A DNA stretch of 64,000 bases from assembly GCA_964022095.1 (NCBI GenBank), contig CAXHZO010000010.1:16010-80009 (forward strand), given 5' to 3'. The notes under the pieces are model-generated. The model worked only from the letters and a program-made list of their open reading frames with translations, was not told where the DNA came from and did no database searches. A program made the translations under genes and the position numbers. Positions 6,043-31,708 of the stretch are shown here, piece after piece (the stretch's first letter is position 1; each line of letters begins with the position of its first letter). This DNA is from an uncultured Arcobacteraceae bacterium. GTDB lineage: Bacteria > Campylobacterota > Campylobacteria > Campylobacterales > Arcobacteraceae.

Positions 6043-7419
6043 CTAATCTTTTCTTTTTTCAAATATTCTTTCTGTAAATTGTGCAAATTTACCTCTTACT
6101 GCTTTTTCAAGTTCAATTGCAAACATTTTTAGCTCAGGATGCTCATAGTTTGTTTGCTTTAAAAGTGTTGTTAAACCATTATTATATTTATTTAAATAAA
6201 GGTTATCAATTTGTCTATTTGAACCAATAACAACTCCCATACAACTCTCATCAAGCCTTGATAGTATTAGTTGTGTTGTTTTTTCACTACTATTTTGCCA
6301 CTCATCCATAATAACAATTGCACTAGATAGTGTTCTACCCCTTGCTTCTCCTGGCCATAATGTTTCAATACAATATTTAGATTCAAGCTCACTGATTTTT
6401 GATTCTATTGATTCTTGATTCTCTTTATTTTCACTTTTTTTTAGATGTTTTTTTGCAATAAACTCTAAAGTATCTTGTAATGCCATATTATAGATTCTAA
6501 ATTTTTCATCATTTCCTGCAAGATAACCAATATCTGCACCTTTATCAAGTGACTCAATAGAGTTTCTAACATAAACAATTTTATCATAATAACCTAAATC
6601 GATAAGCCTCATAGCACTAACAATTGACATAAGAGTTTTACCACTACCTGCTTTTGCATCAATTACTAGTAAATCATACATATTCGATAGTATTGCTTTT
6701 GTAAATAGTTTTTGTTTTAGGTTTACTGGCCTTACATTTAATGCTTTAAAATCATTTTCTTTTAATGTATCAATTCTTTTATCATGAATTATTGCATATT
6801 GTGTATTTCCATCGGCACTTAAAAATTCATAAGAAAAGTTTTGGAATTCATACTCTTCATCAATAGTTTTAATATCTTTATTATCTAAACTATTAAAAAT
6901 CGATGAGTCTAAATCAAATTGTTTTACAAAGTTAAACTTTGGAACTGTAGATTTATCATCATGAAGAGTTTCTGCTTTTATACTTTTAAAGAGTGCAAAA
7001 GTTCTAGCATAAACATCAAGTGATAAGAAAATTGTTTGAGAACCTTTATAGTAATCTCTTGCAATACTTGCAACTTCTATTATTCTTTTATCATTTGATT
7101 CAGAAATATGAATTTGTTCAATTTGAGTTTCATATGCATCTTTTGAAATAATATCAAGATTTATTTCATCATTAAAAAGTTTCACAACTTTAAAGCCAAG
7201 TTTATAATCTACTTCTTTAATTTTCATCTTTGCTAATAGTCTTGCAAACTCTCTTGAATAGTATCCTAGTTCATTAGTAAGTTTCTTTTTATCCTCTAAC
7301 TCAAGAAGAACTGTTTCAGGAATAACAATGTGATTAGTTTTATTGTCAGATATTCGATTTAGGTTTTGAAGATTTTGTAAGATGATATTTGTATCTACTA
7401 CATATACTTTTTCTTTCAT
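6043..7419 (-). CDS. PIN-PhoH (PhoH2/YlaK-like) protein
   Basis: N-terminal VVDTNI PIN motif, AGSGKT Walker A, RGRTL, MDEWQN, QID; start could be 7419 or 7434. Confidence 0.9.
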   Translation of the reverse strand: MKEKVYVVDTNIILQNLQNLNRISDNKTNHIVIPETVLLELEDKKKLTNELGYYSREFARLLAKMKIKEVDYKLGFKVVKLFNDEINLDIISKDAYETQIEQIHISESNDKRIIEVASIARDYYKGSQTIFLSLDVYARTFALFKSIKAETLHDDKSTVPKFNFVKQFDLDSSIFNSLDNKDIKTIDEEYEFQNFSYEFLSADGNTQYAIIHDKRIDTLKENDFKALNVRPVNLKQKLFTKAILSNMYDLLVIDAKAGSGKTLMSIVSAMRLIDLGYYDKIVYVRNSIESLDKGADIGYLAGNDEKFRIYNMALQDTLEFIAKKHLKKSENKENQESIESKISELESKYCIETLWPGEARGRTLSSAIVIMDEWQNSSEKTTQLILSRLDESCMGVVIGSNRQIDNLYLNKYNNGLTTLLKQTNYEHPELKMFAIELEKAVRGKFAQFTERIFEKRKD

Positions 7420-7512
7420 AAAAAATTGTATCATAACAATTGTTACAAATTAGATACAAGATAGTATATTTAATAGTCTATTAGATTTACTAAAAGACTT
7501 AGGATAAAAATC

Positions 7513-10086: not shown

Positions 10087-10130
10087 AATATAAGTGATAT
10101 AAAATAAAAAGTATTTAAGGGGATTTGTAA

Positions 10131-10152
10131 ATACATGGTGCGAATGGTGAGA
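10131..10152 (+). repeat. att site (duplicated tRNA-Leu 3' end), left boundary of element 1
   Basis: Identical to 18108-18129. Confidence 0.95.
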
Positions 10153-10489: not shown

Positions 10490-13400
10490 ATGACAATATC
10501 ATTTTTACATATATCAGACTTACATTATGAATCTAGAAAATCAGAAACTTTTGAGGAATTAAGAAATAAAATTTTAAGTGTATTAAGTAATAGCAATAAA
10601 AGTATAAATTTTATTGTTTTTTCTGGTGACTTAGTTCAAAAGCCTTTAGAAAATGAATCTAATAATGCTTTTGAGACTTTTATAGAACCAATTATTAAAC
10701 AATTTGGTTTAGATAATAATTCATTAATTTTTACTAATGGTAATCATGATGTTGATATCACTAAAAGAGATAAATATGCTTTTAGTGGTTTTTTAAATCA
10801 TCTCAATAGTCCAGAAAGAAAAAATGTAATAAAAGATTTATTGAATTTTGATATAAATTTTCCTGAACACCAAGATTTTGTAGAGTTTATAGGTTCTCTA
10901 AACCAAAATATAGTTATTGAGAATAATGTGTATTATTCGACTTATAAAAAGAATGTTAATGGTGTGGAAATAGGTTTTGTCTCAATAAATTCAAGTTTAT
11001 TAATGCAGACGAGTAAAAAAGATTTTGGTAATCTTTTAATTATTGAAGAAATATTAGAAAAAGCTATGAAAGATATAATCTCTACAAACATGAAAATTCT
11101 TAATATTCATCACCCCCTTAATTGGTTTAAAAATTATAAAGAAATAGAAAAAATTATATTAGATAAATTTAATATTGTATTTTATGGACATGAGCATGAA
11201 CATGATGGTAAATATACTATTGATACATATAATAGAGATATTTTAAATTTACATGCCCAATCTATGTATCATCAATCTGACTTACCTGATGGATTTGCCA
11301 TTTATGATTACAATATACATGATGAAGAAATAGAAATAACAAAATATATGTATAGTAAAGCGCATAATAATTATGACAAATTAGATACAAATAAAATACA
11401 AAATATTGACTTACTTAAAAAATCTAAATCAATTAGAAATCAAAATATATGTACAAAAATAAAAGAACCTTTAAAAGAACATATTAATAAATTTTTGGCA
11501 ATAAATTTGACATCAGATATACAAAAAGAAGATATTGAAGAAATATATACACATCAAAAAATTACCGAAGATGATGAAAATAATTCTGATGAAAGAAAAA
11601 AACATCTTGAAATGAATGAAAAAGAATTTTCTCTTAAGGAGTTAATTGAATCTAATGATAATTTACTATTTTTAGGTAAAAAGGAAATTGGTAAGACAAC
11701 TTTATTAAATAGTATTAATATTAATTACATTAGTAATTATGGTGAAAAAATCCCTATTTATATCTTATCAAGTGAATTAATTCATGAAAAGAGCGAATAT
11801 ATAATTTTTGCAAAAATCTCAGATTATTTAAAGAAATTTTATGGTGAGCATAAATTTAAAATTAATGATATGATAAAAGAAAAGAGATTTTTACTATTAA
11901 TTGATAATATTCAATACTTAGAAAATGAAATGGTTGATAAGTTGCTATCTTTTGAAAATCAAATTTTTGCAACATACAGAATTAAAGATTATGACAATAT
12001 TTATTCAAAACTTAATCATTTTAATTTAAAAAGTAATAGTTTAAACAAGTTTAAGAAACTCAAGATACATCCCTTTAGACAAAAAGATAGTAATGAACTT
12101 ACAAAAAAAATTGTTCCAATAGAAACATCTAAGCAAATTTCATCTAATGTAAAAAAAGCAATGAATAAATTAAGTTTGCCATCAAATCCTTTTTTAACTA
12201 CATTATTAATATGGATGTATAGAGATAAAATTGAAATAAAGGATAGTGAACCAGAAATAATTGAAGTACTTTTAGATTATTTACTAGAAAAATCTGATGT
12301 AAAAAGAAATTTTGATTCAAGAATTAATTTTGAGAACAAAAAAAATATATTATCTGCAATTGCTTATAAATTTTATGAACAAAAAAGTTTATCTTTAGAT
12401 GAAAATATAATTTTAGAAACAATTATTACTTATATAAAAACATATTTTGCTTTTCAAATTAATGCAAAAGATATATTAGACTATTTTTATGATAGAAGAA
12501 TTTTTATATGTAATTTAGGACAAATACAATTTACATATAGAGTCTTTTATTATTACTTTATTTCTCTATTTATGATAAAAAATAATGATTTTTATAAGAC
12601 AATTTTTGATAATGAGTTATTAATTACAAATATGCATGATGAACTTAAATTTTATTCAGCATTAAAAAATGATGATTTGTCTGCAATTAGTAAAATCGAA
12701 AATATTATTAGTAAATCCATATTTAACAAAAAATTAAAAAAAGTTAATATTGAATTACCTATGAATTATACTTTTACTATCAATGATTTGGGAGAATTAC
12801 ATCCTAAACAAACTATAAGTGAAGAAAATGAATCTGAAGATTTAGAAATAAAAATATCAAATGATGAAAAAGACTTCATTGATAAAATTGATTCAATAAA
12901 CACTGATCATAGAGAAAATCATATTGAAAGGTTTAATAATGAAAACGAGTTGGTAAGTATATTTCTCCAAAATAAAGAAGAATATTTTGTTTTAAATTTA
13001 ATTTATTCTGAATTTATTAAAAATTTAACAAATGTTAATGTAAAAATACAGAATGAATATGTTGTGAATTCAATTAGAAATATAAGTAATATTACAAGAT
13101 ATTGGTTTTCTAAAATTAATGATGAAGAAGTAAGTCAAAGATTTTTAAATAGAAAAGTAAAGGAATTTAAAATTGATTTAGATTTAAAAAGAATTGTTGA
13201 TTTAAAAGAACTTATAAAATCAAATATTTTAGCTATTTTTACAGAAGTAATAGAAATTAGTTTGTGTACACCAACTATGATAGAAATTTACAAAGAGAAT
13301 TATAATAAATCAGATGATATTTTCCTTAAATACTATTTTTTAATATTTATTATTGAAACTGATGAAGAAAACATTTTTCTAGAATACATAAAGTCTTTTA

Positions 13401-13630
13401 TTAAACATTCAAAAATGAATAAAACTTTTATATATATTTTGTATGGAAAACTTGTTCATGATTTTGTTAATAAGAATTTTTCTTCAAAAACAAAAAATGA
13501 GATTAAGAGTATTTTGATTTATCTTGAATTAAATCTAAATTCAGCTATAAATGATAGTTCAGGTACTAATAAATCAATAGCTAAAAACAAAGTAGAAAAT
13601 GACTTAAAAATAAAAAAAATGTTAAGTTAA
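10490..13630 (+). CDS. Metallophosphoesterase fused to a STAND/NACHT-like NTPase (candidate anti-phage protein)
   Basis: HISDLH, FSGDL, GNHD, HHP and GHEH calcineurin-like motifs; GKKEIGKTT Walker A and LLLIDN Walker B; long helical C-terminus. Confidence 0.85.
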   Translation: MTISFLHISDLHYESRKSETFEELRNKILSVLSNSNKSINFIVFSGDLVQKPLENESNNAFETFIEPIIKQFGLDNNSLIFTNGNHDVDITKRDKYAFSGFLNHLNSPERKNVIKDLLNFDINFPEHQDFVEFIGSLNQNIVIENNVYYSTYKKNVNGVEIGFVSINSSLLMQTSKKDFGNLLIIEEILEKAMKDIISTNMKILNIHHPLNWFKNYKEIEKIILDKFNIVFYGHEHEHDGKYTIDTYNRDILNLHAQSMYHQSDLPDGFAIYDYNIHDEEIEITKYMYSKAHNNYDKLDTNKIQNIDLLKKSKSIRNQNICTKIKEPLKEHINKFLAINLTSDIQKEDIEEIYTHQKITEDDENNSDERKKHLEMNEKEFSLKELIESNDNLLFLGKKEIGKTTLLNSININYISNYGEKIPIYILSSELIHEKSEYIIFAKISDYLKKFYGEHKFKINDMIKEKRFLLLIDNIQYLENEMVDKLLSFENQIFATYRIKDYDNIYSKLNHFNLKSNSLNKFKKLKIHPFRQKDSNELTKKIVPIETSKQISSNVKKAMNKLSLPSNPFLTTLLIWMYRDKIEIKDSEPEIIEVLLDYLLEKSDVKRNFDSRINFENKKNILSAIAYKFYEQKSLSLDENIILETIITYIKTYFAFQINAKDILDYFYDRRIFICNLGQIQFTYRVFYYYFISLFMIKNNDFYKTIFDNELLITNMHDELKFYSALKNDDLSAISKIENIISKSIFNKKLKKVNIELPMNYTFTINDLGELHPKQTISEENESEDLEIKISNDEKDFIDKIDSINTDHRENHIERFNNENELVSIFLQNKEEYFVLNLIYSEFIKNLTNVNVKIQNEYVVNSIRNISNITRYWFSKINDEEVSQRFLNRKVKEFKIDLDLKRIVDLKELIKSNILAIFTEVIEISLCTPTMIEIYKENYNKSDDIFLKYYFLIFIIETDEENIFLEYIKSFIKHSKMNKTFIYILYGKLVHDFVNKNFSSKTKNEIKSILIYLELNLNSAINDSSGTNKSIAKNKVENDLKIKKMLS

Positions 13631-13646
13631 TTATTATAATTATAGT

Positions 13647-14642
13647 ATGAATAAATTATCAATAGAAAACACATTACTAGAATTCAATAATGAAATTAAA
13701 AAAACTGGAAGTATTGAAAAGGCATTTGTAAATTATCTTAATGAACAATTTAAAGAATTTGATGGATTAATTGATTATGAGAATTACAAAAAACAGATAT
13801 TTGGCCAATTTAAAACATCTCAAACTTTACATTTAATTTTCTCAAAAAAAGAAATTCATAATACTTTGGCTAATACTTTATCTCAATATGATTATGAATT
13901 TCTAGATGAACAAATAGAAGTATTTAATTATTTAGTTCAATATGATAAAGCTTGTATAATTGATGATCAAAAAAAATATTACAGATTAAATACACTCTTA
14001 TGTAAAGTATTTGAACACTTAGAAGCTTTAGAAAAATGGCATGAGCTTGAAAAATCAGAAGATATACTAAAAAAAGGAATAGCTAGAACTCCTCATCCTA
14101 TTGTTTCAGATGCTATTAAACCAAGAATAAAAACGATAAATGATTCTTTAGAATTAAATCCTATACAATCAAATGAAATAATGTTAAATATCTATAATGA
14201 GTTTGAGAGTAATCCTTTAGAAATAACTGCTATGTATAATTCATTGCAGCATTTAAAAAAAGAAAATTTCTTAATTGATGAAAAGCAAAATTTAGAAACT
14301 TTATTTAATCAACAAACTTTTTTAAACTCTGCAAAAATACTGGAAGATACACATATCTTTAATAGTTGTAAAATTACATCATATTTATTATATAAAGAAA
14401 AAACTATTATTGATTTATCCTTACAATTAAATAAACATATCCCTTATACTCAATTATCAAAATATATGAATACTCTAATAGATTCTTTTTTTGATTATGA
14501 ATATAAATCTAATTTATCTAAAAAACATATTGAAAAAGAAGTCCAATTAAAAACACATTTTAATAATTTAGAAATACTAGAATTTAGAACTAAAATGAAC
14601 TATCAAGAACATCCTATATTTAATGATATTAAATTTGGCTAG
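13647..14642 (+). CDS. Hypothetical protein (331 aa)
   Basis: Long ORF 16 bp downstream of the STAND gene; no motif recognised. Confidence 0.7.
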   Translation: MNKLSIENTLLEFNNEIKKTGSIEKAFVNYLNEQFKEFDGLIDYENYKKQIFGQFKTSQTLHLIFSKKEIHNTLANTLSQYDYEFLDEQIEVFNYLVQYDKACIIDDQKKYYRLNTLLCKVFEHLEALEKWHELEKSEDILKKGIARTPHPIVSDAIKPRIKTINDSLELNPIQSNEIMLNIYNEFESNPLEITAMYNSLQHLKKENFLIDEKQNLETLFNQQTFLNSAKILEDTHIFNSCKITSYLLYKEKTIIDLSLQLNKHIPYTQLSKYMNTLIDSFFDYEYKSNLSKKHIEKEVQLKTHFNNLEILEFRTKMNYQEHPIFNDIKFG

Positions 14643-14754: not shown

Positions 14755-15018
14755 ATGATTACATTAAAAGGTCATTTACTAAATATTATTCCAAAAACGG
14801 AATATAAAAAAGATGGAGAAAATTTAGCAACTCCAGTAAAAGCTAAACTACAAATTTTAGTAGAAAATAAAAGAGCAAATGGAGTCTTAGTTAAAGACTT
14901 ACATACTATTTCTATTCCTGATGAAAAGATTCTTATGTACAAAGATAAGATAGGTAAAGAAGTAAGTGTAGAAGTTGGAATTATGTCAAAAGATAAAATT
15001 AGTTTCTATGGTGTCTAA
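14755..15018 (+). CDS. Small putative single-stranded DNA-binding (OB-fold, inovirus pV-like) protein
   Basis: 87 aa, beta-rich pattern, directly upstream of the rolling-circle Rep; SD AAGGA. Confidence 0.6.
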   Translation: MITLKGHLLNIIPKTEYKKDGENLATPVKAKLQILVENKRANGVLVKDLHTISIPDEKILMYKDKIGKEVSVEVGIMSKDKISFYGV

Positions 15019-15134: not shown

Positions 15135-16504
15135 ATGAATGAAGTTAAAAAAATCTTCGGTATAGATTCACTTTATTACTTCTGTGAATCAAATGATGAT
15201 TATGATGATTTGTATCTAGAAATATTAGACCAAATAGAAGATATTAAAGGTAAATACCAAAAGAAAGAAATTGAGTTTGAAAATAGAGATATTACTATTA
15301 AAGTAAATGATGTACCTTTACACTTTCTTGGTAAAGCTGAAGGATATCATTGGTTTGTAGATACTAATGAATATTTTAAAATAGGTTTTAAAGATAAATA
15401 CAAAAATAGAGGTTTAAATGATATTAGAGTTCAACTTCTTGGAGTTGGTATTTATTCAATAGGAATAAAATCACTAATTGAGTTTATAAATAAAGAATTA
15501 CTAAAAGAGTATGTAACTGGATACTTTCCAATTACTAGAGCAGATTTAAACTGTTTTATACAATATGACTTTAGCTTTGTAACTAAAGAGATGTTTGTAT
15601 CTAAAAAAAAGAAATATTCAACTATTAGTGAAATAGGTAGTTCAACTACAACACAAACTTTGTATGTAGGAAAAGAGCCATTTAAACTAAGACTTTATAA
15701 TAAAAAAGAAGAGTTAAAAAAGTCAAAGAAAAAAAATTTGATGTATGAATACTTTTCAAATCATGGATTTGATTTAGAAGATGAAATATTTAATGTTGAA
15801 TTTGAAATACATAGAACTCATATAAAACTATTTGGAATAGATTCATTAGATGATTTCTTTAAACATGCAGTTAGATTATTTCAATTTAGTATGAATGATA
15901 TAAGACTAATAGATATTAATTCATTAAGTGATAATGCAGTAGAGCATAACAATAAAAGAAGAGCAGATACTTTACCAATATGGGATGAGATACAAAGAGA
16001 GTTTAATTTAAAAGAATTTTTACAATCTTCTTTACCATTAGAAAGAATTAAAAGAAAAATATCTATTTATGATGATAATAAGTTTGAATATGAGTTTATA
16101 GTTTTAATTAGAAAAGCAATAATAAATGATTTAAATCTAGATAGAGACTATTTAAACCATTTATATGAAAAAGGAAAAGATAGTTTAAAAAGACTACTAC
16201 ACCAAAGCAATTAAAACAAGATTATATAGATATAGAGTTTGTACATGAAGATGGAAAAGTAGAGAAATATAGACAATTAGATAATGGAGAGATAATTAAA
16301 CCATTAAGAACTTTAACTGTAGCAAAACTGAGTGATTATGATTTACATAGATATTTAGAAAAAGTTACCCAAGTTCAACACTTATCTACTAGAAACAAAC
16401 ATATATTTGAGGTAGCTTATAAAGAGGCTATGCATAGAGGATTAATTCCTAGTATTAATCCTACTGAATCATTAGAAGATGAAGAAGATAGGCTAGATTT
16501 TTGA
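15135..16504 (+). CDS. Rolling-circle replication initiator (Rep_trans family); 0-frame stop at 16214, -1 frame continues to 16504
   Basis: ITRADL, TLYVG, RLYNKK (putative catalytic Tyr), NVEFE motifs; T-TTA-AAA at 16184-16190 precedes a 104-codon open -1 frame. Confidence 0.8.
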
Positions 16505-16584: not shown

Positions 16585-16890
16585 ATGGAAATATCATTTG
16601 AGAATTTAAAAAAAATTGACACTATATTAGAAAAATTAGAACTACTAGAAAATAAAGTAACTAGTGAAAAAAGGTGGCTTAATACAAAAGAAGCTTCACA
16701 TTATTTAGGTTATTCACAAGACCATATACACAAACTAAAAGAGAATTATTTTATTGAAAGTAAACACTATTTTAAAAAAGCTGGAAGAATTTTATTTGAT
16801 AAACTAGAACTTGATATATGGGTTAAAAACTCATATTGTGAAGTTAATCCAGGTCAAATCGTAGATTCTATATTGAAGGATTTAAAATGA
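16585..16890 (+). CDS. Excisionase-like HTH protein
   Basis: RWLNTKEASHYLGYS...GRILFDKLELDIW, directly upstream of the integrase. Confidence 0.85.
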   Translation: MEISFENLKKIDTILEKLELLENKVTSEKRWLNTKEASHYLGYSQDHIHKLKENYFIESKHYFKKAGRILFDKLELDIWVKNSYCEVNPGQIVDSILKDLK

Positions 16891-18039: not shown

Positions 18040-18107
18040 TACTCGTACAATTTTATCACAGTTGAAAAATTTTACTATTGAAAAGCCGTTGTATCGGGGA
18101 TTAAAAG

Positions 18108-18129
18108 ATACATGGTGCGAATGGTGAGA
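18108..18129 (+). repeat. att site, right boundary of element 1 (overlaps the tRNA-Leu 3' end)
   Basis: Identical to 10131-10152. Confidence 0.95.
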
Positions 18130-18199
18130 ATCGAACTCACACTCCGAAACCGGAATGGGATTTTAAGTCCCACGCGTCTACCTATTCCGCCACACTCGC
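18113..18199 (-). tRNA. tRNA-Leu(TAA)
   Basis: GCGAGTGTGGCGGAATAGGTAGACGC...GGGAC-TTAAAA-TCCC, long variable arm, GTTCGATTC, CCA end. Confidence 0.96.
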
Positions 18200-31609: not shown

Positions 31610-31708
31610 GGGAGATATGTGTACCTGGTGGGCACCACAGGCTTCAACCCTGATTGAGAGAATATGTGTATATTCTCTGGGAGGTTCGATTCCTTCATCT
31701 TCTCGCCA
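31610..31708 (+). tRNA. selC: tRNA-Sec(TCA)
   Basis: CAGG-CTTCAAC-CCTG anticodon arm with TCA, long variable arm GAGAATAT...ATATTCTC, GTTCGATTC, GCCA end; divergent from selA. Confidence 0.92.

Follow-up and report, generated by a model that had tools for sequence, protein, structure and literature searches.

A predicted DS-8-like metallophosphoesterase-NACHT gene as the probable cargo of a tRNA-Leu island in an uncultured Arcobacteraceae bacterium

We analyzed a stretch of 64,000 nucleotides (hereafter the window, meaning the whole stretch at its full length) from an uncultured Arcobacteraceae bacterium (assembly GCA_964022095.1, contig CAXHZO010000010.1, positions 16,010 to 80,009), with a focus on a gene for a 1046-amino-acid (aa) metallophosphoesterase-STAND protein and on the gene for a 331-aa protein that follows it. 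Both genes were located on an island of ~8 kb, together with an 87-aa gene, a 359-aa open reading frame (ORF), a gene for a 101-aa HTH_17/excisionase-like protein, and a tyrosine integrase gene, all on the plus strand. Direct repeats bound the island as left and right attachment sites (attL and attR), with a start-to-start spacing of 7977 bp and a tRNA-Leu gene at the right end. The two junctions share an identical 20-nt core of these repeats, which also occurs unchanged at the empty site in a complete genome of the same genus (G156; G numbers denote genomes and L numbers loci), where only 108 bp, and no island, separate the Cache histidine kinase gene of the left flank from the tRNA cluster. 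Because this site is empty in G156, we consider the island to be an insertion at the 3′ end of tRNA-Leu. In the island, the G+C content was ~20%, vs ~26% in the remaining window. Coordinates of all features are given in Table 1.

The 1046-aa gene is an ATG-started ORF of 3.1 kb, and only 16 bases separate it from the 331-aa ORF on the same strand. At ~20% G+C, about 1 in 10 random codons is a stop, so that a frame of 1046 codons lies far beyond chance. The translation contained the complete set of the 5 calcineurin-like metallophosphoesterase motifs (DxH, GD, GNH[DE], H, and GHxH), the conservation of which was scored on an alignment of 52 homologs. The motifs G46-D47, G84-N85-H86 (followed by D87 in the 1046-aa protein), H207-H208, and G233-H234-x-H236 were present in all 52, and D10-x-H12 was conserved in 51, the other row being a gap. 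Further, the Walker A motif GKKEIGKT at residues 396-403 fits the pattern GxxxxGK[ST], with G401 found in 52 and K402 in 51 homologs. The Walker B motif LLLID472-N473 fits hhhhD, with D472 invariant (52/52), and position 473 was D in 28 and N in 24 homologs; because N is found in 24 of 52, the "DN" form is a common variant of the family and not peculiar to the window copy.

At E ≤ 1, the best and only PADLOC match of the 1046-aa protein was PDC-S60 (hidden Markov model [HMM] PDLC05051; E 2e-79, 265.9 bits), which aligned residues 5-1035 with profile positions 3-1020 of 1027, and no Avs or bNACHT PADLOC model matched within the same limit. The NCBIfam family NF053861 (DS8_antiphage) also matched the protein colinearly, its residues 7-1009 aligning with profile positions 1-992 of 994 (E 1.5e-46). 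Besides DS-8, the nearest annotated phosphoesterase family was NF053862 (DS9_1), with residues 4-215 aligned to profile positions 195-404 (E 2.3e-12). This match is also an indirect hint that the domain may belong to the calcineurin-CE effector clade (Nicastro et al. 2023). When 4 homologs were scanned against Pfam, PF00149 passed its threshold in all 4, with 45-64 bits vs 21.5, and PF24406 (nSTAND_NTPase4) was above threshold in 3.

The AlphaFold2 model of the 1046-aa protein (mean pLDDT 84.6, pTM 0.69) comprised a phosphoesterase sandwich (~1-310), a linker, a P-loop NTPase that includes helical as well as winged-helix domains, and an all-helical C-terminus, with helices from ~residue 531 to 1045. 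Foldseek aligned the middle part with NLRP3 NACHT (E 4.8e-10), NOD2 (3.9e-9), and NLRC4 (2.9e-8), and the N-terminus with Rv0805, purple acid phosphatase, and SMPDL3A. In VIA-align, model residues 313-933 matched NLRC4 (8fvu_B) at Z 19.2 (rmsd 6.1, 425 aligned). The phosphoesterase fold was recovered over model residues 1-310 at Z 20-29 against YydB of B. subtilis, purple acid phosphatase, SMPDL3A, Rv0805, and GpdQ; purple acid phosphatase, SMPDL3A (Z 20.5-20.7), and Rv0805 (Z 20.1-20.7) scored Z 20-21, and Mre11 structures Z 17-17.7. Searching solved structures with a broad profile gave weak matches only, led by Lmo2642 (E 2.7e-9) and including Rv0805, Mre11 (E 6.5e-6), SbcD (E 1.4e-5), and NLRC4; a profile built from close relatives matched nothing at E ≤ 0.01 among solved-structure sequences.

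Most features listed for this pair of ORFs in a preliminary description, made from the sequence alone, were found again: the 2 frames with their positions, lengths, and 16-bp gap, all 5 metal motifs (invariant or nearly so among the homologs), an intact P-loop in the Walker A motif, and a long helical C-terminus, now borne out by the AlphaFold2 model. The Foldseek check proposed there returned both an NACHT module like that of NOD-like receptors (NLRs) and a phosphoesterase fold. The Walker B sequence was likewise present as described, but its designation as "atypical" was wrong, the same variant being carried by the 24 relatives mentioned above.

Among the structural neighbors of the phosphoesterase domain (model residues 1-320), YydB, taken from the YydD-YydB integrative model 9a6c (chain 9a6c_B), was the best by a wide margin (Z 29.4 vs ~21; rmsd 2.9, 294 aligned, 24% identity). 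YydB may be a related conflict-system effector. A literature search on YydB/YydD gave nothing relevant among the matches listed. The control genome of B. subtilis also gave a match to the PDC-S60 HMM.

A search of 5.8 billion protein clusters identified 65 proteins at E ≤ 0.001, the query among them, of which 29 were close relatives (36-72% identity) and 26 of these full-length. The relatives were mainly metagenomic, with 1 named Sulfurimonas metallophosphoesterase, and phage records held no match to the 1046-aa protein. Out of 184 genomes of the family, 2 had the protein, namely the window genome (G000) and, as a distant copy over 2 contigs, G165; in the phylum, phosphoesterase-STAND homologs were sporadic, occurring in 5 of 401 genomes. 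The neighbors of the homologs varied by locus and included NERD, DUF4427, DUF4365-TPR, Fic, integrase, and transposase genes as well as ordinary metabolic genes. At one metagenomic locus (L028:3440-5344), the gene directly 3′ of the phosphoesterase-STAND homolog encodes a 634-aa DUF4365-TPR protein with a nuclease-like domain and repeats, which suggests a further defense gene in a defense-island context.

The 331-aa protein was distributed differently. It was found in 15 of the 184 family genomes, including G000, vs 2 for the 1046-aa protein; 8 matches were full-length at E ≤ 1e-50, 1 was truncated at a contig end, and the rest were weak and partial. We searched the 7 other full-length loci, ~20 kb each, by tblastn and identified the Rep-like gene next to the 331-aa homolog in all 7, the 87-aa gene, the HTH (helix-turn-helix) gene, and the integrase in 6 each, and the phosphoesterase-STAND gene in none. 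Conversely, we examined 14 other phosphoesterase-STAND loci, 3 of them from reference genomes (whose contigs were scanned with a profile of the 26 closest sequences), 9 from metagenomes, and 2 from distant PDC-S60 members. A 331-aa-like gene was present in only 1 of these, a Sulfurimonas metagenome-assembled genome (L025; hhalign probability 97.9), where the 87-aa, Rep-like, HTH, and integrase genes then follow, making it the same type of element with the same cargo. The other 13 loci lacked the gene and differed in their neighbors, as expected of a system that, like PDC-S60, functions as a single gene. A 321-aa ORF 3′ of the L032 homolog, considered as an analog of the 331-aa gene, proved to encode an unrelated NERD-domain protein (hhalign probability 0.1).

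On this distribution we rejected the 331-aa gene as a partner of the STAND gene, and we assign it to the backbone of the element with high confidence. The preliminary description had left both options standing, and the co-occurrence check that it proposed decided for the second, as the 331-aa gene tracks with the replication and integrase genes instead of the STAND gene. The opposite view, a two-gene defense system in which the 331-aa protein is an obligate partner (a regulator, an antitoxin-like brake, or a co-effector), is very improbable. The 2 genes share a strand, could be co-transcribed, and leave no space for a terminator in the gap between them, and the pair is found again in the Sulfurimonas genome. 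However, that recurrence is explained by the common backbone, and the 331-aa gene occurs with the element backbone and without the STAND gene in 7 of 7 family loci. At least 8 of the 13 phosphoesterase-STAND loci without it have at least 4 kb of downstream sequence, the 331-aa gene and the first cargo gene are divergently oriented in 4 of the 7 sister elements (L017, L019, L021, and L023), and DS-8 acts as a single protein according to the available text of its description (PMC13092281).

With the 331-aa gene set apart as backbone, the 1046-aa gene is very likely to encode a single-protein NLR-like anti-phage sensor of the DS-8/PADLOC PDC-S60 kind. The preliminary description had proposed an effector-STAND-sensor protein of this type with a phosphoesterase effector, and the reading is supported because the PDC-S60 and DS8_antiphage matches are full-length, the fold is NACHT/NLRC4-like, and the homologs lie in defense-island and mobile contexts. 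As far as the accessible text of DeWeirdt et al. (Science 2026, PMC13092281) describes it, DS-8 (DefensePredictor system 8) is a single metallophosphatase-NACHT protein of E. coli that protects against phage, and mutating either of 2 predicted catalytic phosphatase residues or a NACHT ATPase residue abolishes defense. We therefore regard as likely the explanation of the whole locus in which a DS-8-like NLR is the cargo of the tRNA-Leu island and the 331-aa gene is part of its backbone. The kind of protein is already known, since the family is cataloged (DS-8, PDC-S60) and 1 distant member has been tested, and it is less novel than first thought.

Several observations weigh against the defense reading or narrow it. 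The DS8_antiphage score, 158.7 bits, does not reach the NCBI equivalog cut-off of 790; judged by its sequence, the protein is a remote homolog of DS-8 and no equivalog, and the DS-8 phenotype would be transferred to it by inference. Pfam scores of the protein itself were below the gathering thresholds for both Metallophos_2 (14.1 bits vs 27) and NACHT (11.8 bits vs 26.7), and the domain calls therefore rest on homologs, motifs, and the predicted fold. Strong PADLOC matches were obtained for the cargo of only 2 of 8 elements (the window island and L022), and cargo without such a match may or may not be defensive. Further, because its Rep-like gene is frameshifted, the window element may be decaying and no longer replicating or moving, though integrase and cargo are intact. 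A role outside immunity, in which the phosphoesterase-NTPase serves the mobile element (e.g., in addiction or exclusion) or host physiology, would be compatible with carriage on a mobile element and with the subthreshold Pfam matches. Full-length homology to a validated defense protein and to a PADLOC candidate family makes such a role hardly credible, as do the use by other defense-like cargo of the same slot in sister elements, the NERD, DUF4365-TPR, Fic, integrase, and transposase genes adjoining the homologs, and the sporadic distribution in the phylum.

If the 1046-aa protein is an NLR-like defense protein, its action would begin with recognition of a phage-derived cue by the C-terminal helical region, a sensor role suggested by the architecture of NLR and Avs proteins. 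The NACHT module, in which the P-loop lysine and the Walker B aspartate are intact, would then switch and oligomerize and thereby activate the N-terminal calcineurin-like metallophosphoesterase. This effector would most likely split the phosphoanhydride bonds of free nucleotides, converting NAD+ to nicotinamide mononucleotide (NMN) and AMP and/or (deoxy)nucleoside diphosphates ((d)NDPs) to the monophosphates ((d)NMPs), and the collapse of essential nucleotide pools would abort the infection.

Depletion of nucleotide pools through hydrolysis of NAD+ or (d)NDPs is a proposal that we make tentatively, by analogy with the homologous domain of DS-9A/MisA/PUA-Cal. The portions of the Metis preprint available to us state that the calcineurin-like domain of MisA cleaves NAD+ into NMN plus AMP and predict the same chemistry to be common in other defense systems with a MisA-type domain. 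In the available portions of the PUA-Cal-HAD preprint, the same domain type turns dNDP into dNMP after a HAD step and in vitro cleaves NAD+ to NMN and AMP independently of HAD. The DS-8 paper, in its available text, calls the phosphoesterase domains of DS-8 and DS-9A homologous (PMC13092281). The proposal is weakened on several sides. As presented in the available parts of 2 papers, the physiological substrate of the DS-9/Metis enzyme is disputed between NAD+ and deoxynucleoside triphosphate (dNTP) pools; the PUA sensor and HAD partner of DS-9A are absent from the island; Mre11/SbcD nucleases are also detectable relatives of the phosphoesterase domain; and neither the fold scores (Z 17-21) nor the weak matches in sequence separate the substrate options. 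The DS-8 authors themselves, in the text available, propose a cyclic nucleotide as substrate, by analogy with SMPDL3A (PMC13092281).

Accordingly worded as a rival, that suggestion makes the protein a defense NLR whose phosphoesterase would have a cyclic (oligo)nucleotide or other signaling nucleotide as its substrate, with no depletion of NAD+ or dNTPs. SMPDL3A and the cyclic-nucleotide phosphodiesterase Rv0805 are among the structural neighbors, and Lmo2642 and Rv0805 are the best solved relatives of the profile. We nevertheless consider it unlikely: an effector that removes a signal needs a signaling system, of which none is encoded in the island; several phosphoesterase subfamilies share Z 20-21 and are not told apart by fold; and the nearest characterized homologous effector, DS-9A/MisA, depletes NAD+ or dNDPs, according to the available parts of the preprints. 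The chances are poorer still for a nuclease of the Mre11/SbcD type that, once the NLR is activated, would break down DNA of the phage or the host. The family profile does detect the N-terminal motifs of Mre11 and SbcD, Mre11 structures do align, and Avs/NLR-like systems often have nuclease effectors. However, the Mre11/SbcD sequence matches are limited to the first ~87 residues, which hold the generic motifs I-III, and nucleotide phosphodiesterases and phosphatases score higher than Mre11 (Z 20-21, and 29.4 for YydB), as does the DS9_1 family in sequence. Tentative as it is, pool depletion is thus the effector action that we retain for the DS-8-like reading.

Table 1. Features of the tRNA-Leu island in the window and cargo of its sister elements (window positions unless a locus is named)
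Feature	Position	Strand	Basis or content
attL, left direct repeat, duplicates the 3′ end of tRNA-Leu	10119..10152	.	34 nt, 88% identical to 18096-18129
1046-aa metallophosphoesterase-NACHT/STAND protein, DS-8-like/PDC-S60, predicted island cargo	10490..13630	+	PDC-S60 and DS8_antiphage matches; AlphaFold2 pLDDT 84.6
Predicted N-terminal calcineurin-like metallophosphoesterase effector domain (~residues 1-310)	10490..11419	+	Five motifs, VIA-align, DS9_1 match
NACHT-type NTPase module: P-loop, helical, and winged-helix domains (~residues 380-700)	11627..12589	+	Walker motifs, Foldseek, NLRC4 alignment, PF24406 in homologs
C-terminal all-helical region, presumed sensor (~residues 701-1046)	12590..13627	+	DSSP of AlphaFold2 model: helices only; no family match
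331-aa conserved island backbone gene	13647..14642	+	Synteny in related loci without the STAND gene; AlphaFold2 pLDDT 89.1
87-aa backbone gene	14755..15018	+	Homolog in 6/7 related loci and L025; no Pfam family
Rep-like backbone gene, frameshifted	15135..16504 (15135-16214 in one frame, 16202-16504 in another)	+	Intact ~448-aa homologs
101-aa HTH_17 (AlpA/excisionase-like) protein	16585..16890	+	PF12728 E 6.3e-4, below gathering; phrog_66
Tyrosine integrase, 361 aa	16954..18039	+	PF00589 E 3.3e-23, SAM-like and arm-binding domains; phrog_1 E 3.7e-60
attR, right direct repeat, overlapping tRNA-Leu(taa) (minus strand, 18113-18199) at its 3′ end	18096..18129	.	Direct repeat and tRNA
L017 cargo (G002, closest sister)	L017:10554-13202		882-aa protein, weak NACHT signal (E 5e-4)
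L018 cargo			280-aa protein and 289-aa Mrr_cat_2-like protein
L019 cargo			963-aa, 541-aa (pentapeptide repeats), and 184-aa proteins
L020 cargo			Three small proteins without known function, then a different integrase
L021 cargo			Single protein, 320 aa, without known function
L022 cargo (G160)	L022:7760-12751		Three-gene PADLOC candidate PDC-M60 A/B/C
L023 cargo			Single protein, 375 aa, without known function

The remaining backbone genes of the island were annotated to different degrees. The 359-aa ORF corresponds to a ~448-aa Rep-like protein that is whole in sister elements, such as the G002 and G055 copies, and is frameshifted in the window: residues 1-353 and 355-447 of the homologs align in different frames, which places the frameshift near 16195-16205. 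Sister element L019 has a split copy of the Rep-like gene as well. The Rep-like protein had no Pfam or PHROGs match and no tblastn match in plasmid or phage collections; the Atlas feature search linked its L021 homolog, at 0.95, with a cluster that has PF02486 (Rep_trans) in 21% of its members, and we take this link as a lead only. The 101-aa protein matched phrog_66, "excisionase and transcriptional regulator" (E 1.2e-4), and its HTH_17 score was 20.4 bits vs a gathering threshold of 27, with 28.6 bits for the L025 copy.

The 331-aa protein had no Pfam, PADLOC, or PHROGs family, and in NCBIfam it gave a chance-level match only (E 0.081). We identified 16 other clusters at 90% identity, and a profile search among 1.84 billion proteins retrieved 57 representative clusters at E ≤ 0.001, with unannotated relatives of the same length. 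The ORF had been introduced as an orphan, which holds in that it belongs to no known family and fails in the strict sense, as it has relatives in these 57 clusters. Its AlphaFold2 model (pLDDT 89.1, pTM 0.87) was mostly helical, and no significant structural neighbor was found in the PDB with Foldseek (best E 0.62), among 48,161 chains with VIA-align (best Z 5.8, under the noise level for helical proteins), or in BFVD (best E 0.14); the Atlas gave nothing at ≥0.9. Residues D100, H124, T148, H150, P151, and D234 were invariant in the family, along with a conserved GIARTxHP stretch, and these positions hint at a functional site. The protein may be a new fold or enzyme, and by its position in the backbone it presumably serves the replication, maintenance, or transfer of the element. 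The weak partial matches to residues ~213-322 (27-33% identity) were found in G020, G021, G032, G033, G034, G039, and G043 (loci L010-L016), in ORFs of 179-294 aa, several of them with internal stops, and may stem from elements in decay or from a distantly related family of paralogs.

The backbone is retained in sister elements, and other cargo occupies their slot, which has the 331-aa gene on one side and the presumed att site on the other (Table 1). Putative direct repeats of 15-27 nt bound 5 of these elements, with sizes of ~6-10 kb, and the repeat of L019 corresponds to the tRNA-Asn 3′ end. In the 882-aa protein of L017, the weak NACHT/nSTAND5 signal lies at ~474-633, and the N-terminal ~470 aa match no family; this protein may be another NLR-like defense protein. 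In the PDC-M60 system of L022, receiver domains are found in proteins B and C, with an additional alpha/beta-hydrolase domain in C. The part of the locus that may be new is this family of elements, together with its single slot for exchangeable cargo and an unclassifiable 331-aa backbone protein. A stronger version is possible but rather doubtful: the island would belong to an undescribed family of 6-10 kb integrative elements of Arcobacter-like bacteria and Sulfurimonas, possibly phage satellites, with a slot for one defense system at a time; the 331-aa protein would be a new element-lifecycle protein, acting for example in helper-phage hijacking or replication control, and the unlabeled cargoes (882, 963, 375, 320 aa, and others) would be new defense genes.

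Outside the island, a tRNA-SeC gene (31610-31704) and a gene for a 463-aa PIN-PhoH fusion protein (6043-7434, minus strand) were identified, both of which look like ordinary host genes.

The 1046-aa gene would add a distant, AT-rich member from Campylobacterota, a phylum poorly covered in current defense catalogs, to the DS-8/PDC-S60 family of phosphoesterase-NACHT proteins, and as a divergent member that keeps every catalytic residue it should be useful for comparative biochemistry of the family. The more useful result is a negative one, in that the 331-aa gene should be neither annotated nor tested as a defense partner. Further, an element family with a conserved backbone and a single swappable slot offers a cheap route to candidate defense genes.

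We compared the island and its cargo with known systems. Avs and bNACHT proteins, reportedly described as bacterial NLR-related anti-phage proteins by Gao et al. in 2022 and Kibby et al. in 2023, share with the 1046-aa protein the tripartite logic of effector, NTPase, and sensor, and the nucleotide-binding module of the latter aligns with NLRC4, NLRP3, and NOD2. The 1046-aa protein differs from them in having no PADLOC Avs/bNACHT match, a metallophosphoesterase as its effector, and a sensor in which neither TPRs nor any other repeat family can be recognized. DS-9A, MisA of type I Metis, and PUA-Cal of PUA-Cal-HAD (NF053862) have a homologous metallophosphoesterase effector domain, whereas the window protein has as its regulator a NACHT module plus a helical C-terminus, and its island has no HAD gene.

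Small phage satellites, including PICMI satellites and P4-like satellites, harbor defense hotspots, as the available text on PICMI describes (PMC10803314). The island family resembles them in its element size of 6-10 kb, in its integrase, putative AlpA/HTH_17-like, and replication-type genes, and in its variable slot by the att site with defense-like genes. In contrast to PICMI, it integrates at tRNA genes or other sites and not at fis, and it is not known to be induced or packaged by a helper phage. The PICMI primase domains DUF3987/DUF5906 were not detected in 3 full-length Rep-like homologs or the window copy (Pfam E ≤ 0.1, 1 chance-level match aside), and none of the family libraries searched holds a counterpart of the 331-aa and 87-aa backbone genes.

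The closest likenesses are those of the 1046-aa protein to PDC-S60 and DS-8. The match to PDC-S60 is full-length, and both are single-gene systems; PDC, which we take to stand for phage defense candidate, marks a computational candidate only. The name "PDC-S60" was not found in a full-text literature search, and a literature search combining NACHT, metallophosphoesterase, and phage defense gave no match. From DS-8, the window protein differs in being remote (158.7 vs 790 bits), in coming from another phylum, and in being encoded by a very AT-rich gene on a tRNA-integrated mini-island. It nevertheless shares with DS-8 a colinear, full-length match and the plan of a single protein of ~1000 aa in which a metallophosphatase at the N-terminus is followed by a NACHT NTPase and a C-terminal region, and D10, H12, D47, N85, H86, H207, H234, H236, and K402 are all intact in it and invariant, or nearly so, in the 52 homologs.

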